Of a stretch of 31,276 nucleotides of DNA, positions 1-19,535 are shown piece by piece. The stretch covers positions 1-31,276 of IMG/VR virus record IMGVR_UViG_2534682222_000020; one strand, 5' to 3'. The translations under genes were made by a program, and so were the position numbers. The DNA comes from a virus (taxonomy: Duplodnaviria > Heunggongvirae > Uroviricota > Caudoviricetes). Each line of letters starts with the position of its first letter. The first letter of the stretch is position 1. The notes beneath the pieces were generated by a model. That model did no database searches. It was not told where the DNA came from and saw only the letters and a list, made by a program, of their open reading frames with translations.

Positions 1-396
1 CTATTGTGCGGCCGATTCTTCTGGGCCGCACAATTTCTCGTAATCTTTTGGCGCCGTTCTATCTAAACCTGTGTAAATTTCTTTCCTCATGATTGAGTAG
101 GTTACACCCTTTGAGAAGGCGCCCTTAGGAACCATATTTATTTCTACCAGGAAGGGAGAAAAACCAGCGTAAGCCCCAAACCCATTTTTTGCATTCAGCT
201 GCCCGCATACGATCCCCTTAACCTCACCATCTTTTGTTTCTTCTGTTTGCACAAAACGCATATACCGAAATTTTGCGCTATCTGGATCTCTTGTATCTGC
301 GGCAACCTCTTTCTGCGCCAGTTCAATAGCCTTATCAACACCAGGCTTACACCCTACAAGCCCGATTAATGCCAGTAAAACCATGGTTTTTCTCAT
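1..396 (-). CDS. Putative lipoprotein (host gene or prophage cargo; possible surface/exclusion protein)
   Basis: ORF 1..462 minus; internal ATG at 394..396 preceded by GGGGA RBS gives MRKTMVLLALIGLVGC, a signal peptide with lipobox L-V-G-C. No recognisable phage structural homology. Lies beyond the ogr terminator. Confidence 0.5.
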   Translation of the reverse strand: MRKTMVLLALIGLVGCKPGVDKAIELAQKEVAADTRDPDSAKFRYMRFVQTEETKDGEVKGIVCGQLNAKNGFGAYAGFSPFLVEINMVPKGAFSKGVTYSIMRKEIYTGLDRTAPKDYEKLCGPEESAAQ

Positions 397-460
397 TTTC
401 GTTCCCCACTTCCATTGGTAAGAGCGGTAATTATCATTTTCTGCTGATTGCTTCTCAAGC

Positions 461-486
461 AAAACCCCGCAAATGCGGGGTTTTCT
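461..486. terminator. Bidirectional intrinsic terminator downstream of ogr
   Basis: Seen in sequence: aaaa-CCCCGC-aaat-GCGGGG-tttt; 6-bp GC stem (465..470 / 475..480), 4-nt loop, T-tract on both strands, immediately after the ogr stop (487..489). Confidence 0.55.
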
Positions 487-735
487 TCATACTGCGAGAC
501 TGAGTTGACTGCTTCCATAATGCGAAGCGGGGAAAGCATCTGATGGGATGAAATCAGCCGGTAACTTATCGCGTGGTGCGCGTTTGGTTACCAGCTTCTC
601 AACGCTGTTGAGCGTAGTAAACGTAATACTGCATTCGAAATTCTGGCACTGGTGATAATGCCGGACTGTCATTTCACTAAGATGGCGACTGGTGCGCGTA
701 CGGGCGACGGCACCACAAACAGGACACTTAAACAT
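487..735 (-). CDS. ogr: Ogr/Delta-family zinc-finger late-gene transcription activator
   Basis: 82 aa; MFKCPVCGA...RYHQCQNFECSITFTT matches the recalled P2 Ogr Cys4 pattern (CPxC...HQCQNxxCSxTF). Confidence 0.85.
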   Translation of the reverse strand: MFKCPVCGAVARTRTSRHLSEMTVRHYHQCQNFECSITFTTLNSVEKLVTKRAPRDKLPADFIPSDAFPASHYGSSQLSLAV

Positions 736-780
736 AATGGCCTCCCATGGCGGGAGTTGAACTCGCTCATATTATGGCCG

Positions 781-1935
781 CTATGATTCGGTTTCTGCAA
801 TCCATTCAGGTATTTTTGCTTCCAGTTCCAGCCGCGTTTTAAATCCACTGCTGTCAATAGTGTGGCTTGCCTTGGCAATTATCCAGTCCTGGCCGTCAAT
901 GACGTCTTTGAATTCCGTTACCGTTCCGTGCATCTCCGGATACAGATCCGCGCGCCCGTAAGCCAGGGTTAAAGTGAACTCAGCTGCTCCTCGCTGGAGT
1001 TGTTGCCATTTTGCAGCTGCTGCACGTTGTGCGGCCATCTCACTGCTGTACGTAGTGCGGAGTACAAAAACGTTACCATCTTCACCGGCAATATAGTCCC
1101 CTTCCCGGCTGCTGCTACGCGGCTTTTTGTCTGCGGTTTTCTTCCGTTTTTTAACAGTGACCTTTTTCTTTTTTCCGAAATCCATATCAAGCCAGTACGC
1201 CTGCACGCCAGTGTATGCGTCACGATCTGCAATCCGGAAAGAATGTCGATCTCCGCTGCTGCGCGTGATGGAAAACTCCGGTAACGCTCTGCCGTTTGCA
1301 CTGACGCCACCACCAGGCAGGATGAACAGCAGGTAACCATTTTTCACAGTTGCAATAGCGCCCAGCATTTCCGCCATGCGCGTCAGAAACGACATGTCAC
1401 TTTCTTGTGTCTGATCTGCATGGTCGATCTCGGCGGACATCAGTTGCTCTGAGATGAGAGGTTTTAACTTGTACCGGTGAGCTATAGCAGAGACGATGCG
1501 CTCAACTGTAACGTCATGCCACGACACCTCCCGTTTGACGTTAAACTCATCGCGGAAATCTGCACTTCTGGCCGTGATCTCGATACGGTCCGGCGGCCCT
1601 GAGTGCGCAATTTCATCCACGATGAAAATCCCTTTGTGAACCAGTTTTTCTCCCTGCCAGCCTATCGCTACTGACAATTCTGCACCACGCGGGGGTAACT
1701 CAATATCTCCCTGGCTATCATCAACAGTGATGGTCAGCTCATCAGCATTAAAGCCCCTGTTATCTGTTAATTCTAATGAGACCAGGTTCCCATCCAGCAT
1801 GATCAACGCCTTGCCGCCAAGCATGACGTTAAACGCAGGTACACGTGACAGGTCGCCCGGATAATTTTTGAATTTCTCAGCACCCGCATTCAGCAGGCTT
1901 TTTGCGCTCTCTATTGCGTCAGTTGTCAGTGCCAT
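781..1935 (-). CDS. D: Tail protein D (late control gene D)
   Basis: ORF 781..2016; likely start ATG 1933..1935 (MALTTDAIE) with GAGGAG RBS. Conserved blocks DNRGF, RSADFR, SWHD, HIDQTQESD..FLTR, SGFKT and a Lys-rich linker, as recalled for P2 gpD. Confidence 0.85.
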   Translation of the reverse strand: MALTTDAIESAKSLLNAGAEKFKNYPGDLSRVPAFNVMLGGKALIMLDGNLVSLELTDNRGFNADELTITVDDSQGDIELPPRGAELSVAIGWQGEKLVHKGIFIVDEIAHSGPPDRIEITARSADFRDEFNVKREVSWHDVTVERIVSAIAHRYKLKPLISEQLMSAEIDHADQTQESDMSFLTRMAEMLGAIATVKNGYLLFILPGGGVSANGRALPEFSITRSSGDRHSFRIADRDAYTGVQAYWLDMDFGKKKKVTVKKRKKTADKKPRSSSREGDYIAGEDGNVFVLRTTYSSEMAAQRAAAAKWQQLQRGAAEFTLTLAYGRADLYPEMHGTVTEFKDVIDGQDWIIAKASHTIDSSGFKTRLELEAKIPEWIAETES

Positions 1936-1993
1936 CGCTTTCTCCTCACGCAAATATTTCCATGCGCGCGCGATAGGACAAACAGCCTTTTGT

Positions 1994-2011
1994 TGTCGCC
2001 TTTCTGTGACA
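1994..2011. promoter_or_regulatory. Candidate Ogr-binding dyad (TGT-N12-ACA) between divergent D and FI
   Basis: Seen: tgtcgcctttctgtgaca. P2-type late promoters carry TGT-N12-ACA centred near -55. A GAATAT -10-like hexamer at 2046..2051 puts the dyad about -55 for FI; an AATATT-like hexamer on the minus strand near 1953..1958 puts it at a similar distance for D. Confidence 0.4.
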
Positions 2012-2086
2012 TCCATCGTGACGTGTCTGCCGCCCGGAATTCAGCGAATATCACCATGAACTCACTAAACATGATGGCGGTAGAGT

Positions 2087-3268
2087 ATGACCGACAACTT
2101 TTTCCACGGATCACGCACCAAAGAAAACACCGACCTTCTGGCCGCGATCAATGACATTGATTCAACGGTCATTGGTCTGGTCGCGGTGGCCGATGATGCC
2201 GATCCCCTCACCTTTCCACTTGATACACCAGTCCTGATCACTCGCGTGATTAGCGTGCTGGGTAAGGCAGGCAAGACAGGCTCACTGTATAAATCTCTCA
2301 AGGCTATTTCCGACCAGGTCAGCACGCGCGTCATTGTTGTTCGTGTCGCTGAGGCCAAAGAGGGTGAAGATGAAAAAACACAATCTCAGCTCATTATCGG
2401 TGGCACTCAGGCTGACGGAAGCTATACCGGTATGTTTGCCCTGCTGACCGCAGAGCAGAAAACGGGTTATCGCCCTCGAATCCTCGGCATTCCGATGTAT
2501 GACACGCAGGAAGTAACCGCACAGCTGCGCGTAATTGCGAAGCAACTGCGTGCGTTCTCTTACAGCTATTGTGATGGCTGCGAGACTATTGCCGAAGCGA
2601 AGACCTACCGCGAGCAGTTCGCCGAACGTGAAGGGATGTTAATTTGGCCTAACTTCATCGCCTACAACCCGCAGACCGGCGTTAATGAAGAATTCCCGGC
2701 TGTTGCCTATGCGCTTGGCCTGCGGGCACTGATTGATAATGAGCAGGGCTGGCACAAATCACTTTCTAACGTTGCGGTGAAAAACGTCCTGGGTATCTCT
2801 AAAGACGTGTTCTGGGCGTTACAGGCGGAGGACTCCGACGCTAATGAGCTGAACGCTAACGAGATTACCACGCTGATCAAACGCGATGGCTTCCGGTTCT
2901 GGGGTAACCGTACCACCGACACCGAAGAGTATATTTTCGAGGTGTTCACCCGGACGGCCCAAATTCTTGCGGACAGCATTGCGGAAGCACAATTCACCAC
3001 CGTGGATAAACCGCTTACCCCGGCTAACGTCAAAGACGTTGTAAGCGGGATCAATGCCAAGCTTCAGGCGCTGGTCACTGCTGGCAAGCTGATTGGTGCA
3101 GCGTGCTGGTTTGATATTGTCGACAACCCGACCACTGGTATTCGCCAGGGTAAAGTTGTTATTCGCTACAACTACAGTCCCGTACCACCGCTGGAAAACC
3201 TGACGCTGATCCAGACGTTTACCGATCAGTATTACGAACCAGCCTTTGCATCGCTGGGAGGTGCATAA
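2087..3268 (+). CDS. FI: Contractile tail sheath protein FI
   Basis: 393 aa; ATG at 2087; RALIDNEQGWHKSLSNV, TTLIKRDGFRFWGNRT, YNYSPVPPLENLTL closely match recalled P2 FI. Confidence 0.9.
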   Translation: MTDNFFHGSRTKENTDLLAAINDIDSTVIGLVAVADDADPLTFPLDTPVLITRVISVLGKAGKTGSLYKSLKAISDQVSTRVIVVRVAEAKEGEDEKTQSQLIIGGTQADGSYTGMFALLTAEQKTGYRPRILGIPMYDTQEVTAQLRVIAKQLRAFSYSYCDGCETIAEAKTYREQFAEREGMLIWPNFIAYNPQTGVNEEFPAVAYALGLRALIDNEQGWHKSLSNVAVKNVLGISKDVFWALQAEDSDANELNANEITTLIKRDGFRFWGNRTTDTEEYIFEVFTRTAQILADSIAEAQFTTVDKPLTPANVKDVVSGINAKLQALVTAGKLIGAACWFDIVDNPTTGIRQGKVVIRYNYSPVPPLENLTLIQTFTDQYYEPAFASLGGA

Positions 3269-3784
3269 ATGGCTATTCCTAAGAAACTCCGCCTGTTCAC
3301 GATGTTTGTCGATGGCGACAACTACATCGGGAAAATACCCAGCGTCACGCTCCCGAAAATCACCCGTAAAACGGAAGATTACCAGGGTGGCGGTATGCTT
3401 GGCTCTGCTGCTGTTGATCTCGGCCTTGATTCAGGTGCACTGGATGCATCAATGATTGTTGGTGGCATGGTCGAGGAGCTGATCCTGAAATGGGGTGGGG
3501 ATATTGACGAACTACGCACGCGCTTTGTCGGTGAGATCTACAGCGGCGGTACAAGCTCCCTGCTTGAGGTCGAGATGCGCGGACGTATTACCGAAGTCGA
3601 CCAGGGCGAAGCCAAGCAAGGTGATGACACCAATCATACTTATGCGCTCAAAAATACGTATTACAAGCTGTCCGTGGATGACAAACCTCTGCTGGAAATC
3701 GACCTGCTGAACTTCATCTACAAGCGCAACGGTAAGAGCCTCTACCCGGATCGCATTGCGTCCGCTCTGGGCCTCGGCCAGTAA
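3269..3784 (+). CDS. FII: Tail tube protein FII
   Basis: 171 aa directly after FI stop (TAA 3266..3268) with GGGAGGTG RBS; size and position as P2 FII. Confidence 0.85.
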   Translation: MAIPKKLRLFTMFVDGDNYIGKIPSVTLPKITRKTEDYQGGGMLGSAAVDLGLDSGALDASMIVGGMVEELILKWGGDIDELRTRFVGEIYSGGTSSLLEVEMRGRITEVDQGEAKQGDDTNHTYALKNTYYKLSVDDKPLLEIDLLNFIYKRNGKSLYPDRIASALGLGQ

Positions 3785-3805
3785 CCTTTTTTAACCACTA
3801 CAAAT

Positions 3806-3824
3806 GGCGGCCAGTCTGGCCGCC
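3806..3824 (+). other. Intercistronic stem-loop between FII and E
   Basis: Seen: GGCGGCCAG-t-CTGGCCGCC, perfect 9-bp inverted repeat; no downstream T-tract. Confidence 0.4.
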
Positions 3825-3837
3825 CGGAGAAAGAATA

Positions 3838-4137
3838 ATGTCAGTAACTCTCAGCCAACCCATTAAACGCGGCGATCAGGAAATCAAATCCGTCTCAATC
3901 ACCGACACAATCAAGCAGGCTGGCTCACTGCGCGGGCTGCGTCTGGTTGATGTTCTCAACTTCGATTATGACGCGGTATCAACTCTGCTGACTCGCGTAA
4001 CCACGCCCCAGCTGACAACTGCCGATATTTCCTCAATGGCGACCGGCGACTTTACGGCCCTGTGCGAAGAAATCACGCCTTTTTTGACGAAAGCGGCGCC
4101 GTCCGCACCGAGCGAGGCGGCAACGGCGAGCAAGTAA
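3838..4137 (+). CDS. E: Tail assembly chaperone E
   Basis: 99 aa; position after tube gene and before tape measure; contains the slippery heptamer near its 3' end. Confidence 0.8.
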   Translation: MSVTLSQPIKRGDQEIKSVSITDTIKQAGSLRGLRLVDVLNFDYDAVSTLLTRVTTPQLTTADISSMATGDFTALCEEITPFLTKAAPSAPSEAATASK

Positions 4138-4310
4138 GAGAGGCAGTATTCAGCGATGTCGACGATCTGATCGCCGATATCGCTGTGATATTTCACTGGC
4201 CGCCCTCCGAAATGCACAGCATGGAGTTGCGCGAGCTGATGGCCTGGCGCGAACGGGCGGCCATCAGAAGCGGCAACCATGATAAGGAGGATGACGACGA
4301 TGGATCTTAG
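3838..4310 (+). CDS. E': E+E' fusion chaperone made by programmed -1 ribosomal frameshift
   Basis: Slippery heptamer T TTT TTG at 4080..4086 in the E frame (cct ttt ttg); the -1 frame continues open as FFDESGAVRTERGG... to a stop at 4308..4310, overlapping the T start. Same arrangement as P2 E/E'. Confidence 0.7.
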
Positions 4311-7239
4311 TATTCGCGTTGCGTTCAGTGCAATTGACAAGCTCACCCGCCCGGTCAGCGCCGCCAGTAAAGCTATTGGCGGCCTTTCCGACTCCCTCAA
4401 AAAAACTCAGTCCTCCATCAAAGACCTGGAAAAAAGCGCAACATCATTTGATAAGTTACGCTCGCAAGCCAATGACACTGCGCAGAAGCTGAAAAGCACC
4501 CAGCGGGCATTTAACGGTCTAAACCAGAAGCAACGTGAAGGCGGCCAGCTTACTGAAGCCCAGACGGCACGGCTTGAGTCACTTCGCACCAGGCTTTCCC
4601 GGCTGACGGAAACCTACGGCAGGCAAACGACGCAGCTGCGCACAGCAGCGCAGGCTGTGCGCCAGCATGGCGTTAATCTCACCACCGGTAGCGGCGCCAT
4701 CCAGAGTGCCATCAGGCGTACGGAACAATACAACCAGGCACTTGAGCGCGAACGTCGTCAGCTGGCTGCTACCCAGAAAGCCCAGGCCAGATACGAACAG
4801 GCAAAAGAGACTGCGGGTAAACTTCGCGGTGCAGGCATGGGGATGATGCTTGGCACTGCTGCTGCGGGCTACGCTGGCGGATCATTCCTTGCGCCTGCGA
4901 TTGGTTTCGACGAGGAAATGTCACGCGTCCAGGCCTTAACCCGCCTTAATAAAGACTCTTCCCAGATGGGAGATCTGCGCGCGCAGGCTAAAAAACTCGG
5001 TGCAGAAACTGCATTCACCTCTCGCGATGCAGCCAGCGGGCAGGCGTTTCTTGCAATGGCTGGCTTTACTCCAGAGGCCATTCAGGCGGCATTGCCCGGC
5101 GTTCTGAATATGGCGCTGGCCGGTGGCATGGATCTTGGTGAAAGTGCCGATATCAGCTCCAACATTCTTTCGCAGTTCCGCCTTGATCCAAAGGAAATGG
5201 ATCGGGTCAGTGATGTTTTGACCGCAGCATTTACCCGTACTAACACCGATTTAATGAACATCGGTGAGGCGATGAAGTATGCAGGAACCGGGATGGCTGG
5301 TCTTGGCGTTGATGTTGAGCGCACAACCGCCATGATCGGTGTAATGGCCAACGTTGGCCTGCGGGGTAGTATTGCAGGTACTGGCCTACAAACCACCTTT
5401 TCACGTCTGGCCGCACCAACAGGCAAGGCTCAGGCAGCCCTGAAAGAATTGGGCGTTTCTGTTGCTGATGCCACCGGAAAAATGCGACCGGCCGAAGTGG
5501 TCTTGTCTGATATTTATAAATCTATCAAAAAGTACGGCGATACAGACCAGCTTTCATTCTTCAAAGATATCGCTGGCGAGGAGGCAGCAAAGTCATTTCA
5601 GGCGCTGGTTAGATCGGCTGGTAGCGGTGAGCTGCAAAAACTCCTTGCCGATTTGCGCGGCTCTCAGGGTGAAGCGCAGAAGGCAGCGAAGGTCATGGCT
5701 GACAACCTCAGCGGTGATCTGAAAAACCTGGACAGCGCATGGGAGGGTTTCCGCATTCAGATTGAGGAGACTGCCGACGGCCCTCTGCGCTCTCTCACTC
5801 AGGGGCTTAGCGATATGATCACCGCCGCCAGTACCTGGGTAAAAGAAAACCCCCGACTGACACAAACAATCATTCTGGTTGTCGGTGGGACACTTGCACT
5901 GGTGGCGGCAATTGGCGCTGCATCACTGGCGATGGGTATTCTTATTGGCCCCCTCGCCAAACTTCAGCTCGGCTTTTCACTGCTGACCGGTGGTCGCGGG
6001 CTACTCGGCACCATTGCAGCTTTTCGCACTCTCGGCACTGTCGCGGGCCCGGCCATGGCAAGTGTCAGAGGATGGTCCGTCGTACTGTCAGGAATCGCCC
6101 CTAACCTGGGAAGAATTTCAGCTATTCTCCCTGCGGTTCGCTCTGGTCTGCTTACTGCATTCCTGTCTCCTGGCGCACTTGTGGGATCGCTGACTAAAAA
6201 CATTGGCATGCTGCTGCTTCGCCTCACTGGCTTACCAGCAATCTGGGGCATGATCACCGGTGCGATATCTGTTCTTGGTGGGGCTTTATCTTTTTTACTC
6301 AGTCCAATAGGCCTGATTGGTGCCGCGTTTGTATCTGCGGGATTGCTAATCTGGCGATACTGGGAACCCATTAAGACATTTTTCCTCGGTATGTTTACCG
6401 GAGTTATGCAGGCGATCTCCCCTCTCAGGGATGCCTTTGCCACCTTTTCCCCCATCTTTGACATGATCAGCAATGGGGTGAAATCCGTCTGGCAGTGGTT
6501 TACAAACCTTTTGTCGCCAATGCAGACCAGCAAAGAGACGCTTGATAAATGCGCGAGCGCTGGCGTGATCTTCGGTAATGTGCTCGGCGGTGCGATTAAT
6601 CTCGTCCTGACCCCAGCCAGGATGCTACTTGATACTCTGGGCTGGATACTTGAAAAACTTGGTGTACTACCTGATGAAGCAGAGAGGGCGCGCAAGAAAA
6701 TTGAGGATGCGCAACGCACTGCCCTCCTTCAGGATAAGGTGGCTTTCCTTGCCGGTGATATGGCTAAAGTCGCCCCCAAAAAAGCAGAGTCGCCAGTTAC
6801 TACTGCTGCACCCGCTGCGGCCTCGCCGCTATCAGGAAATACCGGTACGCAACGACGCCTGCAAAGCATCGCAGACAATACAAAAGCAACCGCTGACAAC
6901 ACCAAGAAAGTCGGGCCGGGTGACATTATTTTCAAAAACCTGCCGCGCGCTCTGGCTTTACGTGGCGCATACCAGGAAGCGCGTGTTACACCGCAGTCAG
7001 TGCCGCGAGTGGCAACGCCCGCCGCTGGCGGCATTATTTCCGCGACAGCAGCCACTCAGGCACCGGTATCGGCCCCCGTTACCGCGCCCACCGGCAATGC
7101 TCCAGTGTTTAACATTACCTTTAACGATGTTGGTAAGCGCACGGATCAGGAGCTGGAAAGAATGGTACGCAATGTTGTGCGTGATGCGATGGCCAGTACC
7201 AACAGAAATAACCGTGGTTCTTTCCGCGACAGAGATTAG
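4300..7239 (+). CDS. T: Tail tape measure protein T
   Basis: ORF 4279..7239; preferred start ATG 4300 with AAGGAGG 9 nt upstream. About 980 aa, coiled-coil N-terminus, long hydrophobic Gly/Ala-rich middle, between E' and U. Confidence 0.85.
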   Translation: MDLSIRVAFSAIDKLTRPVSAASKAIGGLSDSLKKTQSSIKDLEKSATSFDKLRSQANDTAQKLKSTQRAFNGLNQKQREGGQLTEAQTARLESLRTRLSRLTETYGRQTTQLRTAAQAVRQHGVNLTTGSGAIQSAIRRTEQYNQALERERRQLAATQKAQARYEQAKETAGKLRGAGMGMMLGTAAAGYAGGSFLAPAIGFDEEMSRVQALTRLNKDSSQMGDLRAQAKKLGAETAFTSRDAASGQAFLAMAGFTPEAIQAALPGVLNMALAGGMDLGESADISSNILSQFRLDPKEMDRVSDVLTAAFTRTNTDLMNIGEAMKYAGTGMAGLGVDVERTTAMIGVMANVGLRGSIAGTGLQTTFSRLAAPTGKAQAALKELGVSVADATGKMRPAEVVLSDIYKSIKKYGDTDQLSFFKDIAGEEAAKSFQALVRSAGSGELQKLLADLRGSQGEAQKAAKVMADNLSGDLKNLDSAWEGFRIQIEETADGPLRSLTQGLSDMITAASTWVKENPRLTQTIILVVGGTLALVAAIGAASLAMGILIGPLAKLQLGFSLLTGGRGLLGTIAAFRTLGTVAGPAMASVRGWSVVLSGIAPNLGRISAILPAVRSGLLTAFLSPGALVGSLTKNIGMLLLRLTGLPAIWGMITGAISVLGGALSFLLSPIGLIGAAFVSAGLLIWRYWEPIKTFFLGMFTGVMQAISPLRDAFATFSPIFDMISNGVKSVWQWFTNLLSPMQTSKETLDKCASAGVIFGNVLGGAINLVLTPARMLLDTLGWILEKLGVLPDEAERARKKIEDAQRTALLQDKVAFLAGDMAKVAPKKAESPVTTAAPAAASPLSGNTGTQRRLQSIADNTKATADNTKKVGPGDIIFKNLPRALALRGAYQEARVTPQSVPRVATPAAGGIISATAATQAPVSAPVTAPTGNAPVFNITFNDVGKRTDQELERMVRNVVRDAMASTNRNNRGSFRDRD

Positions 7240-7248
7240 GTGACGATT

Positions 7249-7737
7249 ATGATGATGGTTTTTGGAATGTTCGTTTTTATGCTGCGCACCACGCCCTACC
7301 AGCAACTCCAGCACTCGCAGGAGTGGAGGCACGTTAAAAACGAGCGCGTTAACCAGTCAGCAGGCTGGCAGTACATCGGCACTGGTGATGACAACATAAC
7401 CCTTTCAGGTGTTCTTTACCCGGAGATCACGGGGGGAAACCTCTCGCTATCCGCCCTTGAAACTATCGGCTATGCGGGGCGCCCATGGCCGCTTATTGAT
7501 GGTACGGGACGTATTTATGGTATGTACGTTTTAACACGGCTGGAGCGAGGTAAATCCGAATTCGATCAATTTGGGAATCCCAAAAAAATTGAATTTACCC
7601 TCAGCCTGAGCCGTGTCGACGCGGATTACAGGGAGAAGCTGCAAAGCTCGACCGTCAGCGACGCCCTTGCCGGGTTAAAGACGAGTGCAAATAATGCGAT
7701 AAACCAGGTGAAAGACTCGCTCAACGGTCTGTTTTAG
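7249..7737 (+). CDS. U: Tail protein U
   Basis: ORF 7240..7737; ATG run at 7249 (MMMVFGMFVFML) with AGGTGA RBS; WRHVKNERVNQSAGWQY, ITLSGVLYPE, KIEFTLSL match recalled P2 gpU. Confidence 0.8.
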   Translation: MMMVFGMFVFMLRTTPYQQLQHSQEWRHVKNERVNQSAGWQYIGTGDDNITLSGVLYPEITGGNLSLSALETIGYAGRPWPLIDGTGRIYGMYVLTRLERGKSEFDQFGNPKKIEFTLSLSRVDADYREKLQSSTVSDALAGLKTSANNAINQVKDSLNGLF

Positions 7738-7744
7738 CAGTGGC

Positions 7745-8313
7745 TTAAACCCCTTCATGTTCCCTTCTTCTTGAAGGGAACTTCTTGTAAAGCGTCGATA
7801 TTCCGACATCAAAAATAATAGCCACCTGCTGCCGTTTTTCCCCTGCGGCGATCAGCCTTCCCGCCTGTTCCCATTGCTGCTTTGTCAGTTTTGGCCGCCT
7901 CCCGCCTATTCTTCCTTCTGCGCGGGCAGCCGCCAAACCGGCGCGGGTACGCTCAACGATCAATTCTCTCTCCATTTCTGCCAGCGCCCCCATGACGTGA
8001 AAGAAAAAGCGCCCATGGGTGTTGAGGTATCAATGCTGTCTGTCAGGCTGCGGAAGTTAACACCGCGATTGCGTAGCTCTTCGATCATTGTCACCAGGTG
8101 GCGCATGCTCCGCCCAAGACGATCAAGCTTCCAGACAACCAGCGTATCACCCTCCGATAAGGTCCGTAATAAACGCTTAAGCCCCGGCCTTTCCGCTTTA
8201 GTGCCGCTTATTTTGTCTTCAAATATTTGTTCACATCCTGCGCTTACCAGCGCATTTCTTTGCAGCGCAGTGTTCTGGTCATTTGTTGACACCCTTACAT
8301 AGCCGATCAGCAT
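7745..8313 (-). pseudogene. Hin/Gin/Pin-family serine DNA invertase, apparently frameshifted (1-nt deletion) or sequencing error
   Basis: N-terminal ORF 7960..8313 (MLIGYVRVSTNDQ..., active-site Ser) reads correctly to ...STPMG then goes out of frame; the adjacent frame reads GRFFFHVMGALAEMERELIVERT...GISTLYKKF (HTH domain) to a stop at 7745. The break maps to the C-run at 8012..8014. Confidence 0.6.
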
Positions 8314-8420
8314 AAAAATCCCCTTTTATTTAGATGTCATAGTCCCTCGCATTGTATCGAGCATCGTCATTTCTGGCTGTACTGCAGGTCTGGTACCGCA
8401 CCGTCAGAAGTAACCATGTC

Positions 8421-8446
8421 TTCCGGAAAACGTTGGTTTGGGAGAA
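8421..8446. repeat. Left inversion crossover site (gix/hix-like), invertase-proximal
   Basis: Seen: ttccggaaaacgttggtttgggagaa; 22/26 identical to the reverse complement of 10268..10293; AAACC...GGTTT architecture of Gin/Hin sites. Confidence 0.6.
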
Positions 8447-8767
8447 GCGGCGAAAAGGAATGTGGGGACTGGGGCGAATCAGATACCAGACATGTCAGCT
8501 TATTCATCAGGATCTGGCTGGCAAAAATTGCCTGATGGTTCAATTGAACAGTGGGGACGAATTAATTTCCCGACTAACGCCGCGGCGGTATCTACAAATG
8601 TGACTTTCCCCATTCCTTTTACGCAGGAGCCAGACGTAGTGATTGTATATGACGGCGGTTTTGGTGATGGGAATATGTGGGGCGCAACTAACTGGACGCG
8701 AACAGGATTTGTTGCGCATTGTAACTATGGATTTGAAGGTGGAGCTTTCTTTGCGAAAGGGCGTTAA
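8438..8767 (+). CDS. Promoterless alternative tail-fibre C-terminal domain (Sv'-like cassette)
   Basis: Open frame begins inside the left crossover site (...[15 protein letters not shown]...), has no ATG or RBS of its own, and is followed 2 nt later by a tail-fibre assembly gene; would fuse in frame to the H constant region after inversion. Confidence 0.55.
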
Positions 8768-8769
8768 TT

Positions 8770-9210
8770 ATGAAATATTTATATATTGATAATCTGGCGT
8801 ACCCTTACGCCCTACAGTCTGTTTACGCTGCAAAAGGGCAATGGCCAGAAGGAAAAGGCGTAGACATAGACGAAGCTATTTTCAGGGAATATTTCCATGA
8901 CACGCCGCCCGAAGGTAAGCGCAGAATTACCGCAGGCGACGGAATGCCAGCTTGGGCAGATGTTCCTCCACCAACACGTGAAGAACAAATTGCATCAGCC
9001 GAAACTAAAAAGCAGCAATTGATTAACCAGGCCAACGAATACATCAACAGTAAACAATGGCCAGGTAAAGCATCAATTGGTCGTCTGAAAGGTGAGGAAC
9101 TGGTGCAATATAATTTGTGGCTGGATTATCTGGACGCACTGGAACTGGTCGATACTTCCGGTGCGCCAGATATTGAATGGCCTACGCCTCCGGCAGTTCA
9201 GGCCAGATGA
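8770..9210 (+). CDS. Tail-fibre assembly protein, alternate copy (Tfa')
   Basis: 146 aa; ATG 8770 right after the cassette stop; C-terminal ...LVDTSGAPDIEWPTPP resembles the C-terminus of the minus-strand Tfa (...TDTSTAPDVIWPELP). Confidence 0.7.
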   Translation: MKYLYIDNLAYPYALQSVYAAKGQWPEGKGVDIDEAIFREYFHDTPPEGKRRITAGDGMPAWADVPPPTREEQIASAETKKQQLINQANEYINSKQWPGKASIGRLKGEELVQYNLWLDYLDALELVDTSGAPDIEWPTPPAVQAR

Positions 9211-9784
9211 CGTCCGGCGCTGTGCTGGTATCTGTTGCCGTCACCGCGTCAATGTAATCCAGCACAGCGTTAAGTCGGGTGTTTTCTGGCTGCGTCAGCT
9301 TCCGCCCGGCCTGTAATTTCAGTTGAATCAGACTGATGGAAGCCATTGCTGCATTAATCAGTGACTGGCGCTGTGCTTCTGCCGCGTCTAGTGCGGCGCT
9401 ATGCTGTGCCTCGGTATCCGTCACCCATTTCTCACCATCCCATTTATCGTATGGCGTTAATGGGGCGATAGTGGTTGTATTTTCAGGGTAATCACCCGGA
9501 ACTGTGATTTCTTTGGTATCTCCCGTTTCGGTACTATAGACAACTTCACCGCGATGGTCTGGCACATATTCCCATGAATTTAAATCTACAGAGCGACAGA
9601 TTGCATAACCAGCTTTATGTGTACCTGGTGCATCCAGACAGGAACATGCCGGGATACCGACGCCGACAGCGAGATATTCAGTTGATGTAGAAATATATTC
9701 CCGCGTTTCGCCATCATAGTTATGTACGATGATTTCCCCATCATTTAAAGCGTAACCGTCTTTTCCCAAAATAGCCTGTTCCAT
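9182..9784 (-). CDS. G: Tail-fibre assembly protein G (active-orientation copy)
   Basis: 200 aa immediately downstream of H (H stop 9785..9787, ATG 9782..9784); conserved Tfa C-terminal motif. Confidence 0.75.
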   Translation of the reverse strand: MEQAILGKDGYALNDGEIIVHNYDGETREYISTSTEYLAVGVGIPACSCLDAPGTHKAGYAICRSVDLNSWEYVPDHRGEVVYSTETGDTKEITVPGDYPENTTTIAPLTPYDKWDGEKWVTDTEAQHSAALDAAEAQRQSLINAAMASISLIQLKLQAGRKLTQPENTRLNAVLDYIDAVTATDTSTAPDVIWPELPEA

Positions 9785-10888
9785 TTATGCAGCCCTCACA
9801 ATGTAGTTAAATGCAATGTTTCGCGGGCTACCATCACCGGCGCCGGAACTGACATGATTGGTTCTATCCATTCGTTTACTGTCATTTGTTGTTCCACTCC
9901 CATCCTTCCACGAATACAATAACCCGCCATCGCCAATGCTCAACTGCACCGCAAATACGGATGAACCGGATGAATAAACATCTCCAGCCATGAGTGGGTT
10001 CCCTGTCCATCCATGCATTTCATGGTTATGTTCAAGGATAGATGCTGCCTGACTTGAAAGCAGCAGTCTCGCGGAATCAACACCTCGCCCATCATCCCAC
10101 CCGCGAATAAACTCACCGCGCAAATCCGGTAATTTTAACTTTGGGTAAGCCTTTGCCAGTTTTGGGTACTTTTCGGCAGAAAAAGGTGCACCGTTGCATT
10201 TCAGCCAGCCTGTTGGTGGTGTGGCTGAAGGCCACGGAACAGGCACACCAACGGGTAACGCTGAGCCTTCTCCCAAACCAAGGTTTTGGAGAACCTGATT
10301 TACCAGCCCAGCATCAACCATTTCTTTTAATGCATTAGCTATCAGTGGGTATTGCTTGTGCGGATTTGCAGCAGCTACGTGCTTTTTCATCACATCATCG
10401 GCGTATGCCTTAACTTCAATAACGGCATCATCAACATATTTACGGGTTGCCAGCACCACTGACGGATCGATTTTCAGCGTCACAGCCTCGGTGCTGCTGA
10501 CGATCAGGATCACGCGAATAACCTGCACGCGCCCGCTACCTTCCTGCAACTGCGGTTTATAAGTCTCTGCACAGTTGGCAACCGCAATCATATCGCCGTC
10601 TTTATCAAACAGGCCAATCTCACGGATCCACCATCCGCCCGCGTCTTCCGGTATAACCTGTTCCGCAATGATCTGATTGGTGTTTACCGGGTCAACAGTC
10701 AGCATGTTCAGCTGCGCGCGGCGCAGCTCATGCACGAGGGCGGTTTGGGCCGGATTGGGTGTCGGCAGCGCGCCGTTACCATCACCGACGGCCATTTGGG
10801 TGATCTCAACCTGCGCACCCAATGCCGTGGCGTTTGCCAGTTTTGCCGCCCCGATATTGGTTAACAGGGCAAAATATTTAGTCGCCAC
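9785..10888 (-). CDS. H: Tail fibre protein H (constant N-terminus plus variable C-terminus in the invertible segment)
   Basis: ORF 9785..10909; likely GTG start at 10886..10888 (VATKYF... aligning with recalled P2 H MSTKFK...) with GGAG RBS. IGAAKLANAT, QMAVGDGNG, GGWWIREIGL, YVDD match the P2 H N-terminus. Crossover site lies in-frame at 10268..10293. Confidence 0.8.
   Translation of the reverse strand: MATKYFALLTNIGAAKLANATALGAQVEITQMAVGDGNGALPTPNPAQTALVHELRRAQLNMLTVDPVNTNQIIAEQVIPEDAGGWWIREIGLFDKDGDMIAVANCAETYKPQLQEGSGRVQVIRVILIVSSTEAVTLKIDPSVVLATRKYVDDAVIEVKAYADDVMKKHVAAANPHKQYPLIANALKEMVDAGLVNQVLQNLGLGEGSALPVGVPVPWPSATPPTGWLKCNGAPFSAEKYPKLAKAYPKLKLPDLRGEFIRGWDDGRGVDSARLLLSSQAASILEHNHEMHGWTGNPLMAGDVYSSGSSVFAVQLSIGDGGLLYSWKDGSGTTNDSKRMDRTNHVSSGAGDGSPRNIAFNYIVRAA
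10268..10293. repeat. Right inversion crossover site inside the H coding sequence
   Basis: Seen: ttctcccaaaccaaggttttggagaa, internally near-palindromic; encodes VLQNLGLGE in H. Confidence 0.6.
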
Positions 10889-11492
10889 TTGCGATCTCCA
10901 CGGTATCAATTAAATGGACTGCCGCGCCGGTGTAGTCGCCACCGCCCACGGATATGGTTTCAGGAAAATAGGGGTAAACGGTCAACGTATCGCCGATATA
11001 ACACCCCGCTCCGGCTTCGATATACCCCTGCGTCTGAAGCGAAAGCGAAAGGCCGGTAAGGTGGCGGCTTCTGGGTTTCGCGTCATCAATCAGGCGTTCA
11101 AGCTCCTGATATGTTTCCTCGGTTATCCCTTCGTCCTGAATGCCAATTTCAAGCTTGAAAGTGCCGGGCTCCTCGCCGCTCTGCCACCACTCAATCACCC
11201 TCAGCAAATAGCCGAAAGGTTCAACAACGCGCCTCAACGCCGAAATCGTGCCTTTGTGGCGATGGACAAGCCACGAGGCTTTAATTACCTGCCTTTTGGT
11301 CTGTTCAGACCAGCGCTTATCCCAGCGATCAACAGACAACGCCCAGGCCAGATAGGGTAAAAACTCCACGGGGCATTCATCCGGATCCCAGAGCTTTCGA
11401 AGGTCGACAGGAATACCGCTGATCCGCGCCGTCGGTTTCTCCGCATTCCGCATGAAATTGCTGGCTGAAGGCGGCAGGAGGTTGTTATTCAT
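10878..11492 (-). CDS. I: Baseplate assembly protein I
   Basis: 204 aa; LWDPDECPVEFLPYLAWALSVDRWD, VVEPFGYL, RLIDDAKPRSRHL match recalled P2 gpI. Confidence 0.85.
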   Translation of the reverse strand: MNNNLLPPSASNFMRNAEKPTARISGIPVDLRKLWDPDECPVEFLPYLAWALSVDRWDKRWSEQTKRQVIKASWLVHRHKGTISALRRVVEPFGYLLRVIEWWQSGEEPGTFKLEIGIQDEGITEETYQELERLIDDAKPRSRHLTGLSLSLQTQGYIEAGAGCYIGDTLTVYPYFPETISVGGGDYTGAAVHLIDTVEIASGD

Positions 11493-12381
11493 CCGTTCCC
11501 CCTACGCTGATGGTGTGCGAAATACACCGTGCAGCCTGGGTATCATCGATCACGATATCTTCCAGAGGGTTCAGCAAGACGACGCGCTGCACCCCCTGAA
11601 CATGCAGAGCGGCCATAATGGCCGAACGCGCAACATCGCGACCGATTTTCCCCTGCGCTCCCAGCCATGCCTGCAATGCATCATCTGCCGCGCTCAGGAT
11701 CGGCTCAGATTCCGGCCCCGGATAGAGATAAAGCAGAGCGTTAATTTCATAATTCACAATCTCCGCTGACTGGACGGTGAGCCTGTCAGCGACAGGCCGC
11801 TTATCATCCGCTGAGAGCGTGTCGTTTACCGTTGTGATCAGCTCGGCGCTCGCCGTGCCATCTCCTTCGGTAGACAGAATGGATACGACGACGACAGCGG
11901 GAGAAGGACTGGTTGCTTTGGCGTCTGCAACTTTACCGCTGGCGCTTTTCGCAAAATATTCATAAGCCCCGGTAGGACCGGCAACGCTCAGCCCTTCAAA
12001 AGCGGATTGTGCACGCAAACGCAGTGCTGTATCGCTTTCCATCTCCGCATCAGTGGTTTCCGTAGCAGGAACACGAACCAGGCGTTCGGTGTTCAGGTTG
12101 CCAGCAAGGTTATCAAGGTCAGTGGATACGGAATGGCTTAACATGCAGGCCGCAGCGCCCTCATTGATTCGCTGACGCAGCATTAATTCCCGGTAGGCAA
12201 TTACCTGCGCCAGTATGGTCAGGGGTTCAGACTCAAGTTTTAACGCAGCGGCAACAGAAGCCTGCTGTTCATCAGGGAAAGCCGCGATCATGACGGCTTT
12301 GACATCCGCCAGGATCACTTCAAAATCCAGCACTTCAATAATTTGCGGCGGTGGTAACTGCGCCAAATCAACTGTTGCCAT
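11485..12381 (-). CDS. J: Baseplate assembly protein J
   Basis: 298 aa; size and position between W and I; overlapping stop/start with neighbours. Confidence 0.8.
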   Translation of the reverse strand: MATVDLAQLPPPQIIEVLDFEVILADVKAVMIAAFPDEQQASVAAALKLESEPLTILAQVIAYRELMLRQRINEGAAACMLSHSVSTDLDNLAGNLNTERLVRVPATETTDAEMESDTALRLRAQSAFEGLSVAGPTGAYEYFAKSASGKVADAKATSPSPAVVVVSILSTEGDGTASAELITTVNDTLSADDKRPVADRLTVQSAEIVNYEINALLYLYPGPESEPILSAADDALQAWLGAQGKIGRDVARSAIMAALHVQGVQRVVLLNPLEDIVIDDTQAARCISHTISVGGTDE

Positions 12382-12736
12382 TGCTGCTTTTCCTGAGTGT
12401 TAAAGTTGTCTTCTGCTGTTCCATGGATTCTGTCAGCGAGCCTGATAATCCCGCTTCCACTGCCCCGGACTGAGAAAAGCGTACATCCACGGCGCTCAGA
12501 GTGATCCGTGGTTCCCATGTCGCCAGCGCAATCACCACCGCGCTCATCAGCTGCATACGTGTAACGTCGTTTTGCGGGCCATCAATCAGGTCAGGAACAA
12601 GAGAGCCGTAATCACGGCGCATGAGCCTTGAGCCAATCGGGGTGTTAAGAATGTCACTGGCTGACTGCCACACGTGGGCGGCGTCCGTCAGCGTTCCCGT
12701 GCCATCAGGATTCATCCCGGTATAGCGCACCGTCAT
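12368..12736 (-). CDS. W: Baseplate protein W (gp25/GPW family)
   Basis: 122 aa; MTVRYTGMN...GSRLMRRDYGSL matches recalled P2 gpW (MTARYLGMN...GSRVMRRDYGSL). Confidence 0.85.
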   Translation of the reverse strand: MTVRYTGMNPDGTGTLTDAAHVWQSASDILNTPIGSRLMRRDYGSLVPDLIDGPQNDVTRMQLMSAVVIALATWEPRITLSAVDVRFSQSGAVEAGLSGSLTESMEQQKTTLTLRKSSNGNS

Positions 12737-13317
12737 TTCGTGCCCTCCGTCCAGCTTCCGCCACGCTGTACAGCACCATGACCATGATCATCAACCTGCA
12801 CACCGTTTGAGATGAACGCACCGCCTGTGTGCGTAAAGTCCCCCTGCATTTTGCCGCCTTCCGTAACGGTGAAGTTTTTGGTTTTCAGCATCTCGGTACA
12901 CTCGACCAGCGGCGTTTTCAGTAAGACCTTAACCGACGCCTCAATCGTTGCTGATTTGATGCCACTGACCTGCAAAGCCCCTGCCTCTGCGTCATAGCGA
13001 AACTTCGCGCCATCCGGCGCGGTCACGATCATTTCTTTTGTCGATGCGCCTGGCGCCGGATTGTCGTTGCTGTAAAGACTTCCCCCGATGATCGCAGCGG
13101 TTGTATTCCCCCCCAGACTCAGGAACCAAACCTGCTCGCCAACAGACGGCGGCACCCAGACGCTGAAAGCGCCTGCACGCTGTGCATTCCAGCGCAGCCA
13201 GGTGGAATCCAGCTCTCCGCTTTGTACCCGTACCCGCCATTTTTTCTCGTCAATCTCCGTCACCGTACCGGTGCGAACGATGTTTTCCAGCAGGCGGATG
13301 ACCTCAGCCAGATCCAT
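12733..13317 (-). CDS. V: Baseplate spike protein V
   Basis: 194 aa; position upstream of W; size and glycine-rich C-terminus consistent with P2 gpV. Confidence 0.75.
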   Translation of the reverse strand: MDLAEVIRLLENIVRTGTVTEIDEKKWRVRVQSGELDSTWLRWNAQRAGAFSVWVPPSVGEQVWFLSLGGNTTAAIIGGSLYSNDNPAPGASTKEMIVTAPDGAKFRYDAEAGALQVSGIKSATIEASVKVLLKTPLVECTEMLKTKNFTVTEGGKMQGDFTHTGGAFISNGVQVDDHGHGAVQRGGSWTEGTK

Positions 13318-13958
13318 CAGCTCACCCCCAGAGAATCAATGACCTGTCTGGCGATAGCCATGCGGTCCGCTTTGCTCAGGCCGAGCAACTCACGGCGCGG
13401 ATAACTCGCCATCGCTCCGCTGTCGTTAACCCTGTCCCGTAACCCGTACTGGTGAACACGGGCGATGCGGGCAGCTGCACCAGAGAAACCAACTACAGCC
13501 CCCTCAGAAGTCGCTCTTGCTTTCAGAAAACGGGTTGTGCGCAGTCGGCGAAACATAGGATCACTTTTTGTGGTATCGCGGCGCGTCTCGCTGAAACTGA
13601 TATCAAGATAACGCTCAATATCAGAGCGATAGAACGAGCGAACAGCCCCCTTACCCTCATCAAAGCCTGTCAGCATGCGTCCCCGGCTTCCACGGCTTGC
13701 CCGCCAGTTTCGCAGGCGACGCTCCTCACCCTGCCAGATAAACCCGATCCCAGCCTGGGAGCGTAAGACACGGCGGCGACGCTTCGGGTATTTTGTGCCA
13801 TCCGGAGCTGTCTGTTTTCCGATGCGCTGGCTCTGGCTACGGCGTAATGTAGTCGCTATTCCGCGCGCTGTACGCAACCGGCCCGCTGGCGCCATTGCGG
13901 AAAGGATGTCTGCAAAAACCTGATCGAGCTGATGAAACAGCGCTGCATCACCGGTCAT
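13317..13958 (-). CDS. S: Tail completion / virion morphogenesis protein (S-like)
   Basis: ORF 13317..13991; preferred ATG 13956..13958 overlaps the R stop (ATGA); Arg-rich basic protein in the S position between R and V. Confidence 0.6.
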   Translation of the reverse strand: MTGDAALFHQLDQVFADILSAMAPAGRLRTARGIATTLRRSQSQRIGKQTAPDGTKYPKRRRRVLRSQAGIGFIWQGEERRLRNWRASRGSRGRMLTGFDEGKGAVRSFYRSDIERYLDISFSETRRDTTKSDPMFRRLRTTRFLKARATSEGAVVGFSGAAARIARVHQYGLRDRVNDSGAMASYPRRELLGLSKADRMAIARQVIDSLGVS

Positions 13959-14404
13959 GCCAGCTCTCCTCCGCCAAATACTACCTCCCACTCACCGCCA
14001 TAGATGCGAGGGCGGTCTTCACTCAGGTGTTTCGCGACTGGCTTCCCGTCAACGATTTCCACCATGACGCGCTCCCAGACCGGCACCTTGAAGAGAAGAT
14101 CAGCCAGGTCATCGCTGATAATGTCGGCGTCAAACTCCACCTTGCGGTTATTGTCAGGATTCAGCAGTAAATCCGGCTGATATTGCCAGGCCCAGGCCAT
14201 AATCGGCAGCATCAGGTCATCAACCGCCCCGGGGAACTCCACGGCGAGAACATTGATGGTGTAGAGATACATGAATGACGGTTCGCCGGTCGCTTCAATC
14301 CCGATATTGCCTTTTTCCACCCAGACGGTGATTTGCTCCGGGTTGGCCTTACACCAGGTGTTACCGGCTATCAGGGCTTCACGCATCAACTCTGCTTTTT
14401 TCAC
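13955..14404 (-). CDS. R: Tail completion protein R
   Basis: 149 aa; position and similarity to recalled P2 gpR (MLPIMAWAWQYQPDL). Confidence 0.7.
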   Translation of the reverse strand: MKKAELMREALIAGNTWCKANPEQITVWVEKGNIGIEATGEPSFMYLYTINVLAVEFPGAVDDLMLPIMAWAWQYQPDLLLNPDNNRKVEFDADIISDDLADLLFKVPVWERVMVEIVDGKPVAKHLSEDRPRIYGGEWEVVFGGGELA

Positions 14405-14697
14405 TTTATCCCCCTGGCAATTCGCCGCAGTTCCAGCTCTCTGATACCCGCCTTATCGGCGTTGCATGTGTCCAGCGCATCCAGCAGCGCATCGGACCAC
14501 GGAGCGAGACTCCCGTATGTCATTGGTTTTGGCGGTGCTGGCGTTTCAGTTTTTGCCGTCAGGCTTTCCGGCAAAGGTTCCTGAATAATCACCGGCGCTG
14601 ACTTCGGCGGCTCGCTGGTACAGGCTGTCAGCCACACGGTCAGGCACAGGCACAGCGGCACATTTATCACCGGCCAGCTCAGTTTTGATATTTTCAC
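14401..14697 (-). CDS. lysC: o-spanin (LysC/Rz1-like outer-membrane lipoprotein)
   Basis: Alternative-frame ORF overlapping the 3' end of the i-spanin gene; GTG start; signal peptide with lipobox L-T-A-C; Pro-rich mature part. Confidence 0.55.
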   Translation of the reverse strand: MKISKLSWPVINVPLCLCLTVWLTACTSEPPKSAPVIIQEPLPESLTAKTETPAPPKPMTYGSLAPWSDALLDALDTCNADKAGIRELELRRIARGIK

Positions 14698-14941
14698 GGC
14701 GCTTTTCCCCTGTATCGCTACGCTTCTGAGCCAGTGTTTTCAGACCGACGGCCACTTCGTTTACGTCGTTACGTAACGCCCTGACCTCGGCCAGCACTTC
14801 ACCGGTTTGCTTAAGCCTCTGGTTGGCTTCTCCAAGGGCCTTCTCTGCGGCCTCTCGTTTACTGCTCTCCAGCGTCAGCCTGACGCCTGCGATGACCAGC
14901 AGAAGGGATATAAAAACGGAAAATACACCCAGCGCTTTCAT
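14546..14941 (-). CDS. lysB: i-spanin (LysB/Rz-like)
   Basis: 131 aa; N-terminal TM helix (VFSVFISLLLVIAGV) then coiled-coil; directly downstream of the endolysin. Confidence 0.7.
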   Translation of the reverse strand: MKALGVFSVFISLLLVIAGVRLTLESSKREAAEKALGEANQRLKQTGEVLAEVRALRNDVNEVAVGLKTLAQKRSDTGEKRRENIKTELAGDKCAAVPVPDRVADSLYQRAAEVSAGDYSGTFAGKPDGKN

Positions 14942-15489
14942 TTCGCCCCCTTCAGCTCAGGCTCTGACAGGCACCAGTCCCGAAACTCTTCCCGACGCTT
15001 TACCAGCCCCGGCAGACGTTTTCCGCCGGAGTTAACAAAGTCTGTGAGCCGCTCGCAAACGCCCCGCCAGTTACCATCCTGTGCATTGCGCCAGATTGTT
15101 GTTCTGACCTTCTGGCCCCTTTTGTTGGTGTACCAGCCAAGACCACCACAACCGACGTTAAATGCGCCATCAGTCAGCGCTTCGAAAACACGTTGTGGTG
15201 CAGCTGCGCCATTAAACTCGCGGTTTACGCATTTCTCAGCACGAAACAGGTCATTCACCCATCGCTCGGCGATCTCGCGCTCGGCGTATTCGCGGTTCTG
15301 CACGTTACTGGTCGACCCCATGCCTACGGTCAGCACACCCGCCGGGCAGTAATACGGCGTCTTTCGACAATCCTCGTATTTCGCCATCTTCAGCTGCGCT
15401 TCAGGACTTGTACGCAGCGTCTGCGGCCAGAGTGCCGCTGCGAGAGAGACAATCGCCGCAACAGAACAGGCAATAATTCCTCTTTTCAT
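14938..15489 (-). CDS. SAR-endolysin (T4-lysozyme-like muramidase with signal-anchor-release domain)
   Basis: 183 aa; weakly hydrophobic N-terminus GIIACSVAAIVSLAAALW; catalytic E...D...T spacing (YEDCRKTPY...GVLTVGMG). Confidence 0.8.
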   Translation of the reverse strand: MKRGIIACSVAAIVSLAAALWPQTLRTSPEAQLKMAKYEDCRKTPYYCPAGVLTVGMGSTSNVQNREYAEREIAERWVNDLFRAEKCVNREFNGAAAPQRVFEALTDGAFNVGCGGLGWYTNKRGQKVRTTIWRNAQDGNWRGVCERLTDFVNSGGKRLPGLVKRREEFRDWCLSEPELKGAK

Positions 15490-15767
15490 CGCGGTGACTC
15501 CCTGATAGTCCGGATTAACTCCTTCACGTCCTGCCGGTTCTCGGTATCGTCCCGAATCGCATCGATCAATTCATTCAGCAGAACATTATTGGTTTCATGG
15601 ATGCGGGACATCCGGCGGCGATGGAGTTCACCCAGCACGGCAACCACGATCCCGGTGAGCGCAGCAATGAAAGCCAGCCAGTCCTTCTGCGTCATCATGC
15701 CTACGCCCGTCAGCAGCATCGACCAGAGGTATACCGTCCAGTTCCAGAGGCGGTTTATCAGCTCCAT
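15486..15767 (-). CDS. Holin (two TM helices; possibly pinholin partner of the SAR endolysin)
   Basis: 93 aa; two hydrophobic segments and a charged C-terminal tail; immediately upstream of the endolysin with ATGA overlap. Confidence 0.65.
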   Translation of the reverse strand: MELINRLWNWTVYLWSMLLTGVGMMTQKDWLAFIAALTGIVVAVLGELHRRRMSRIHETNNVLLNELIDAIRDDTENRQDVKELIRTIRESPR

Positions 15768-15958
15768 AATTGAACAGTCTCCTTTGTCGCAGAGGTGTCG
15801 ACGTCAGGCAGTTCAACTTCCTGCCCTGCATCAAGGAAGATCTGACCGGCCAGCGCATGATTCGCAGCCAGTACGATCTCGGTCACGCCCTGGGTGATGC
15901 CGTAGTGACGCTGACACAACAAATCCACTGTATCGCCCTGCAATGCCTTCACTTTCAT
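15758..15958 (-). CDS. X: Tail protein X
   Basis: 66 aa between L and the holin, as in P2; LysM-like small protein. Confidence 0.7.
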   Translation of the reverse strand: MKVKALQGDTVDLLCQRHYGITQGVTEIVLAANHALAGQIFLDAGQEVELPDVDTSATKETVQLWS

Positions 15959-16455: not shown

Positions 16456-16558
16456 CGTGTAGTCTCCAGAAAAGGTTGGCGGTGAGCGGACGGAGAAAAG
16501 CTAACGCGATGCGTTGCAGATCTCCGCCCGCGCCGCCAGCGCACGGGGCGCAAGTCGG

Positions 16559-17422: not shown

Positions 17423-17468
17423 TGTTTCTTCCCCGATGAACGGCGGGCCGAAGCCCGCCAGTGTGCGG

Positions 17469-18518: not shown

Positions 18519-18541
18519 GTTCTCTGCTCTCGTAGTGGATA

Positions 18542-19375: not shown

Positions 19376-19451
19376 GTTCGTTTACTCGCTTGTTTTCTGA
19401 GTTCCCGGAGATGATGGCAGGGGGACGCATCCCCCCTCAACGCGTTGTTGT

Positions 19452-19469
19452 TGTGAGCGGAGCACTACA
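19452..19469. promoter_or_regulatory. Candidate Ogr-binding dyad (TGT-N12-ACA) in the O/P divergent late-promoter region
   Basis: Seen: tgtgagcggagcactaca; centre about 55 bp upstream of a plausible P transcription start (GTTAAT -10-like at 19503..19508). Only perfect dyad in the 160-bp intergenic region. Confidence 0.4.
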
Positions 19470-19535
19470 ACCTAAAGCGAGCGCAAGGGTACGCGCGCGC
19501 GGGTTAATCTCCCCGGCAGGAAGCGAGGAGGATTA

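Follow-up and report, generated by a model that had tools for sequence, protein, structure and literature searches.

We found that the DNA invertase gene next to the tail-fibre cassette of an E. coli P2-like prophage is broken by a single-base frameshift, that this allele is widely distributed, that the two crossover sites of the cassette are intact, and that both orientations and many variants of the cassette occur among the carriers of the frameshift. The explanation that we consider clearly probable is that a recent loss-of-function deletion, GGGG to GGG, has left an orphaned switch whose cis-acting parts are intact and which can still be flipped by Din-family invertases acting in trans. 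Flipping after the frameshift would then have been done by such trans enzymes. In a cell without a compatible invertase, the cassette would stay in its present orientation, with the Collar tip expressed. In a cell that holds another Din-family invertase (e14 PinE, or the enzyme of a Mu-like or another P2-like prophage), it could be flipped in trans.

The window, that is the whole stretch of 31,276 nucleotides that was analysed, is a complete P2-like prophage, which in E. coli PCP06171 is inserted between fieF and cpxP. Reading along the window, ogr and D come first (minus strand) and are followed by FI, FII, E, E', T and U (plus strand), then by the invertase gene (minus strand) and the invertible cassette, beyond which lie H, I, J, W, V, the lysis genes and the head genes (minus strand). 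The FI-FII-E-E'-T-U tail block (2087-7737, plus strand) is inverted with respect to the canonical P2 order, with the invertase gene placed between U and the cassette, and minus-strand blocks stand on both sides of it (1-1935 and 9182 onward). The same inverted tail-block layout is found in 94%-identical relatives that have an intact invertase.

By comparing the window with the prophage of PCP06171, we found 99.9% identity in the tail half (1-17340) outside the cassette and 97.5-98% identity in the head and early half (16977-31276), where about 500 bp (23005-23511) are unmatched. On this comparison the prophage genome is mosaic. Beyond ogr, the first 500 bp of the window (1-502) are replaced in two metagenome contigs (L108 and L109) by DNA bearing two different tyrosine integrases; therefore, the frameshifted phage occurs in more than one chromosomal context. 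In the PCP06171 locus (L001, 11269-12249), PGAP calls H an incomplete pseudogene. The H'-Gp53-like fusion ORF is intact there, with 326 aa, and the pseudogene call is an annotation artefact caused by the invertible cassette.

The broken gene, a pseudogene of a Gin/Pin-family (Din) serine DNA invertase, occupies 7745..8313 on the minus strand and has 569 nt instead of the 570 nt of an intact gene. It is read as two ORFs, both on the minus strand. The first one (7960..8313, 117 aa) is a catalytic-domain fragment with the Ser9 nucleophile motif YVRVSTNDQ and an out-of-frame tail of 16 aa: its translation has MLIGYVRVSTNDQ at the start, is correct through DSIDTSTPMG and then continues with AFSFTSWGRWQKWREN up to the stop codon. 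The second one (7745..7993, ATG at 7993, 82 aa) lies in the adjacent frame, opens with MGALAEMERELIVERT and closes with a helix-turn-helix, so that it holds the C-terminal part of helix E and the HTH_7 domain. For this HTH ORF, PGAP sets the start at the TTG at 7963, giving 72 aa; the TTG overlaps the TGA stop of the catalytic fragment (TTGA, 7963..7960), with GGAGAGAG upstream. Pfam identified Resolvase in the 117-aa ORF (E 6.6e-38) and HTH_7 in the 82-aa ORF (E 1.3e-14), and with tblastn residues 1-109 and 101-189 fall in neighbouring frames. A single ORF with Resolvase, helix E and HTH_7 is thus lacking, the domains being split across two frames, and on these matches the split-frame similarity to invertases is far beyond chance. 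The original prediction, in which the catalytic domain is correct up to STPMG and then shifted, with the expected continuation and the C-terminal HTH in the neighbouring frame, agrees with both translations.

By aligning the DNA with that of intact 189-aa homologues (the 570-nt genes of E. coli 6409 and C236-04A, 94% identical), we found a single 1-nt gap, ATGGG-CG versus ATGGGGCG, at alignment column 300. The frameshift site is at 8012..8014, CCC on the plus strand and GGG on the coding strand, one base short of the four found in intact relatives. The lost base, which had been predicted to be missing from exactly this CCC, is one G of the ATGGGGCG run, and the break falls after codon G101, immediately before helix E. 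Because the break precedes helix E, the product is without both the oligomerisation helix and the DNA-binding domain. The loss of the DNA-binding domain had been foreseen and is borne out by the Pfam split; helix E is missing too. Judging from the structures of Gin, Hin and gamma-delta, a truncated product without helix E and the HTH domain would support neither dimerisation nor site binding nor recombination. When the missing base is restored, the protein has 189 aa with Resolvase at 3-135 and HTH_7 at 138-181 (Pfam), and residues 1-185 align collinearly and without a gap to Mu Gin (3UJ3, 4M6F).

Compared with the 6409 allele, the N-terminal part has 10 synonymous and 2 non-synonymous codon differences and the C-terminal part 16 and 5, respectively. 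Such counts are a trace of past purifying selection only and are uninformative on the time since the frameshift. The deletion also changes CCCATGGGG to the perfect palindrome CCCATGGG (8012-8019). Among relatives of the invertase, P0002 has lost RFFF in frame at the lesion spot, an independent event, and P0131, from Enterobacter kobei, is an HTH-only fragment of 76 aa derived from another invertase allele. Invertases of this group seem to have decayed more than once.

The allele with the frameshift greatly outnumbers the intact one. NCBI, ENA and Logan assemblies contain its exact 117-aa product (P0121) on 249 contigs, the collection lists this product in 356 blocks, and looking up the 82-aa ORF gave ten further carrier loci. 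E. coli PCP06171 has the same 1-nt gap; its sequence is identical and is labelled 'frameshifted' by PGAP/RefSeq (NZ_CM129872.1). E. coli 541-15, a 2012 assembly, also carries the allele, and the 12.3 kb compared show 100% identity to the window. A scan with a variable-gap pattern accepting both lengths added one JGI metagenome contig with the deletion allele; it matched neither allele in GTDB species representatives or IMG/VR, and it did not find the G4 allele with these flanks in the three DNA collections. The intact protein is recorded on single contigs only: the repaired 8012..8014 sequence translates to the exact 189-aa protein P0122, known from one contig (Enterobacter cloacae), and P0140 is P0122 with one substitution. 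Among the 21 related carrier loci, which were retrieved via their truncated products, all have G3. The 569-nt pseudogene is identical in 20 of the 21 other carrier loci, and the remaining locus has a single substitution. The pseudogene is thus free of further mutations, which makes the lesion a recent one.

The original prediction had left room for a homopolymer error in sequencing or assembly, in which case the gene would really be intact. It is true that a short run of G/C holds the lesion, that the 541-15 assembly dates from 2012 and that the exact intact protein is recorded elsewhere. However, the same deletion is found in independent assemblies spanning more than a decade, among them separate Logan runs (Illumina-based), ENA and JGI metagenomes and a RefSeq chromosome, and a run of three or four bases is atypical as an error site. 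The 249 NCBI, ENA and Logan contigs together with the JGI contig do not fit an artefact of one assembly or platform, and the identical allele in PCP06171, 541-15, Logan assemblies and ENA/JGI metagenomes refutes the error, to which we give next to no chance. As these records stand, the lesion is real, inherited and recent. Phase-variable contingency genes have a long mononucleotide tract, typically of at least 7, whose length often varies between close relatives; the tract here is G3 versus G4, which does not fit this class.

The cassette that the invertase would have served, 1.85 kb long (8435..10279), lies between two inverted 26-bp crossover sites with identical 2-bp cores (TT/AA) and holds two alternative sets of fibre tip and chaperone. 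The proximal site, on the invertase side, is at 8421..8446 (TTCCGGAAAACG TT GGTTTGGGAGAA, core 8433-8434). The distal site is at 10268..10293 (TTCTCCCAAACC AA GGTTTTGGAGAA, core 10280-10281), inside the tail-fibre gene H, where it encodes the LQNLGLGE junction. Both sites agree with the Sandmeier consensus quoted in PMC4134206. In addition, the core and inner arm (TTGGTTTGGGAGAAG) are identical to those of the P-segment (pix) sites of e14, and this e14 sequence is the reported site of PinE/PinQ inversion (PMC12529663).

The sites stand at the boundary between the constant and variable parts of the fibre, with both tip and chaperone sets in frame. In the orientation of the window, the expressed gene H (9785..10888, minus strand, 367 aa) consists of the constant N-terminal part fused to a Collar-type tip, and the assembly chaperone for this tip (9182..9784, minus strand, 200 aa) has the domains Caudo_TAP_N and Caudo_TAP. 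The silent set is on the plus strand and comprises the alternative Gp53-like_C tip (8438..8767) and a chaperone of 146 aa (8770..9210). Both fibre/chaperone sets are open, and the two Caudo_TAP chaperone genes converge. Upon a flip, the Gp53-like tip is predicted to fuse in frame, which would give an H' of 313 aa followed by the 146-aa chaperone. The exact 146-aa chaperone is present in 904 blocks of the collection, and the ten places shown span several prophage backbones.

In Din-family systems the Fis enhancer is located in the 5' part of the invertase gene, and this part is unchanged among the carrier loci. The Fis-dependent enhancer is described about 100 bp from the proximal site (PMC3798978). 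With a crude Fis-motif scan, we found a motif common to the window and e14, GTGTCAACAAATGAC (8278-8292); the window's only pair at a spacing of 46-50 bp omits this shared motif, and e14 gave no pair. The cis-acting parts of the switch look intact, with the Fis enhancer as a putative element.

We then have, in 21 loci with the same frameshift (L001, L004-L013 and L107-L116), the comparison with related prophages that the original prediction had called for. Their flanks are 99.8-100% identical, and L001 and L004-L013 have 0-7 flank mismatches per 6 kb, none of them less than 600 bp from a crossover core. The cassette between the cores is 81% to 100% identical and is present in either orientation, such that the expressed position is taken by a Collar tip in some carriers and by a Gp53-like tip in others. 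L007 and L008 have the same cassette inverted, with six scattered mismatches and one 110-bp patch. L007 and L011 have opposite orientations, and their flanks do not differ at any position in 9.5 kb. In L111 and L114 the cassette is of the window's type (99%) and flipped, and L013, whose gene H is identical to that of the window, has the same orientation as the window. No pair of carriers is separated by pure inversion alone, orientation being confounded with cassette replacement, and some orientations may have arrived with imported cassettes. Both orientations, near-identical flipped cassettes included, are thus found among these related frameshift carriers; therefore, the caveat of the original prediction, that a paralogue might act in trans, becomes the best-supported reading.

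The cassettes also differ in content: in the lineage as a whole, one and the same outer half-site is followed, at the left core, by at least ten sequences. Mu-like, e14-like, other P2-like and lambda-TMP-type prophages (L015-L024) share the window's cassette (8427-10295) at 98.7-99.7% identity. Their invertase genes show only 72-77% identity, their outer half-sites differ, and the homology ends at the 2-bp cores. Judged from the loci compared, cassette turnover within the lineage is far faster than point mutation. By parsimony, the frameshift would have preceded the diversification of the cassettes, and therefore recombination at the sites would have continued after the cis-encoded enzyme was lost. 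That the crossover sites are ports for the exchange of whole cassettes, beyond inversion, is a suggestion that we put forward tentatively and hold to be somewhat doubtful.

In L006, L012 and L107, DNA that is not site-like is joined exactly at the core (equivalents of 8434 and 10280 in the window). The junction partner is an internal part of the chaperone gene in L012 and a segment with a 484-aa ORF in L107. Such junctions resemble what a serine invertase would leave by acting at quasi-sites or by deletion; quasi-site products are described for Cin in work to which PMC4134206 refers. Several metagenome contigs end 23-87 nt beyond the core, and in 346 of the 904 blocks the 146-aa chaperone is solely on contigs of less than 2 kb. 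Contig ends were not accepted as evidence that the cassette inverts within a sample, since assemblies would break likewise if a second prophage had the same cassette.

Enzymes that might act in trans are frequent: at least one DNA homologue of the invertase is present in 3556 of 5426 complete E. coli genomes. In E. coli PCP06171 itself, one more place resembles the invertase and two more resemble the cassette; with a chimeric query (E<=1e-150), the additional invertase-like place was not pinE-like. Inversion in trans has published precedents in EC958 Phi4, Fels-2 Fin and PinQ of Qin. The original prediction had raised the possibility of a switch frozen in its current orientation, unless a chromosomal paralogue acts in trans. 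If the switch were truly locked, the host would have no inverting enzyme and the phage would make the Collar-type fibre alone. This would fit the broken cis-encoded invertase, the orientation shared by the window and L013, the roughly one third of complete E. coli genomes in which no DNA homologue of the invertase was found, and the e14 pinE and pinE pinQ mutants that are reported to be locked (PMC12529663). However, carriers whose flanks are almost the same show both orientations and many cassette variants, the silent half has open frames throughout and is predicted to fuse in frame, and compatible invertases are common. We regard a locked switch as unlikely: the idea holds only for a cell without a compatible invertase, and it agrees poorly with the carriers in which near-identical flanks enclose the cassette in both orientations.

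The pseudogene might also be less dead than it looks. A -1 P-site slip of tRNA-Phe on a U5 run (GCU UUU UCU), within the candidate frameshifting stretch CCCAUGGGCGCUUUUUCUUUC, could produce a low level of full-length invertase with one change, R to A (MGAFFFH for MGRFFFH). The U5 run follows the lesion at a distance of one codon (three nucleotides), and re-pairing on it would be perfect. Invertases are effective at very low expression, as known for the family; also, the allele with the frameshift is much more frequent than the intact allele, and its carriers still recombine at the sites. Yet the X XXY YYZ heptamer of a programmed -1 frameshift is absent, the downstream RNA structure is no greater than that of shuffled sequences (z = +0.76) and the 94-97% identical homologues are in a single frame, while a recent deletion spreading with a successful phage or clone accounts equally well for the abundance of the allele. 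We rejected recoding as the main explanation because the downstream RNA structure is not unusual, and consider it very improbable.

It is improbable as well that the second ORF yields, by stop/start coupling, a DNA-binding protein of 72-82 aa which would occupy the sites and damp or block inversion in trans. The overlap of TTG and TGA (TTGA), with GGAGAGAG before it, would allow such coupling, and the fragment contains the whole HTH_7 domain. In the related enzyme Hin, a peptide of the C-terminal 52 residues alone reportedly binds hix half-sites. These C-terminal 52 residues are the DNA-binding domain of Hin (PMC4122451). Against this, the candidate peptide is known from its sequence alone, both orientations persist among carriers, and the arrangement is an accidental outcome of the deletion. 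We retain an orphaned switch operated in trans as the preferred reading.

The locus is best filed as an orphaned Din-family (Gin/Cin/Pin/Hin) tail-fibre switch, most like EC958 Phi4. As far as sequence can tell, it has every cis-acting feature of such a switch for which the outcome was clear, and it lacks the intact recombinase. Like EC958 Phi4 (Forde et al. 2014, PMC4134206), it is a prophage fibre switch with 26-bp sites and an adjoining HTH-less invertase. In EC958 Phi4, the invertase is severely truncated, the core is TC and the segment has 3.1 kb, whereas in the present locus the loss of one base has split the gene into two halves that can still be read, the core being TT/AA and the cassette 1.85 kb long. 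Also, inversion was observed for the segment next to the truncated, HTH-less invertase of EC958 Phi4 and credited by the authors to the invertase of another prophage acting in trans (PMC4134206), whereas here orientations were compared among related loci only.

The P segment of e14 has an identical core and inner arm, the same layout (Sv-Tfa / Tfa'-Sv') and, in PinE, an enzyme 85.6% identical to the repaired protein, and PinQ of Qin inverts it as well (PMC12529663). In contrast, e14 is a cryptic remnant with an intact pinE, and the present locus belongs to a complete P2-like prophage with a broken invertase; moreover, the cassette of K-12 (e14) is only about 85% identical to that of the window. 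The likeness extends to Gin and the G segment of Mu, Gin (3UJ3) being collinear with the repaired protein over residues 1-185. In Mu, the invertase is outside the segment, beside one site, and the switch swaps fibre tips and chaperones; gin mutants of Mu are complemented by Pin or Cin. Mu has a different backbone, whereas the backbone here is P2-like and the invertase inactive. Fels-2 Fin of Salmonella is likewise the invertase system of a P2-like prophage, and the repaired protein shares 86% identity with a cluster called 'serine-type DNA invertase Fin'. Fin acts in trans on a heterologous segment (H/hix), inverting the H segment without Hin (PMC4122451). However, Fin is intact and is the donor of activity, whereas here the P2-like phage would be the recipient.

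The lesion in itself is ordinary gene decay, an event of a known kind, in a pseudogene already flagged in RefSeq. For annotation, it is a true pseudogene and no 'repair' is warranted, and the orientation of a prophage fibre cassette is unpredictable from the state of the adjacent invertase alone. What the locus offers is a widespread and datable case of an orphaned invertible switch. A lesion this recent, in a lineage whose cassette has turned over many times, suggests that host range can change fast through invertases acting in trans and through the movement of cassettes from one co-resident prophage to another, which is relevant to prophage tail-fibre typing and to host-range engineering. 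If the junctions at the cores come from site-specific recombination in trans, a phage with a defective invertase would go on diversifying in host range with an enzyme and cassettes that are both borrowed from prophages in the same cell.
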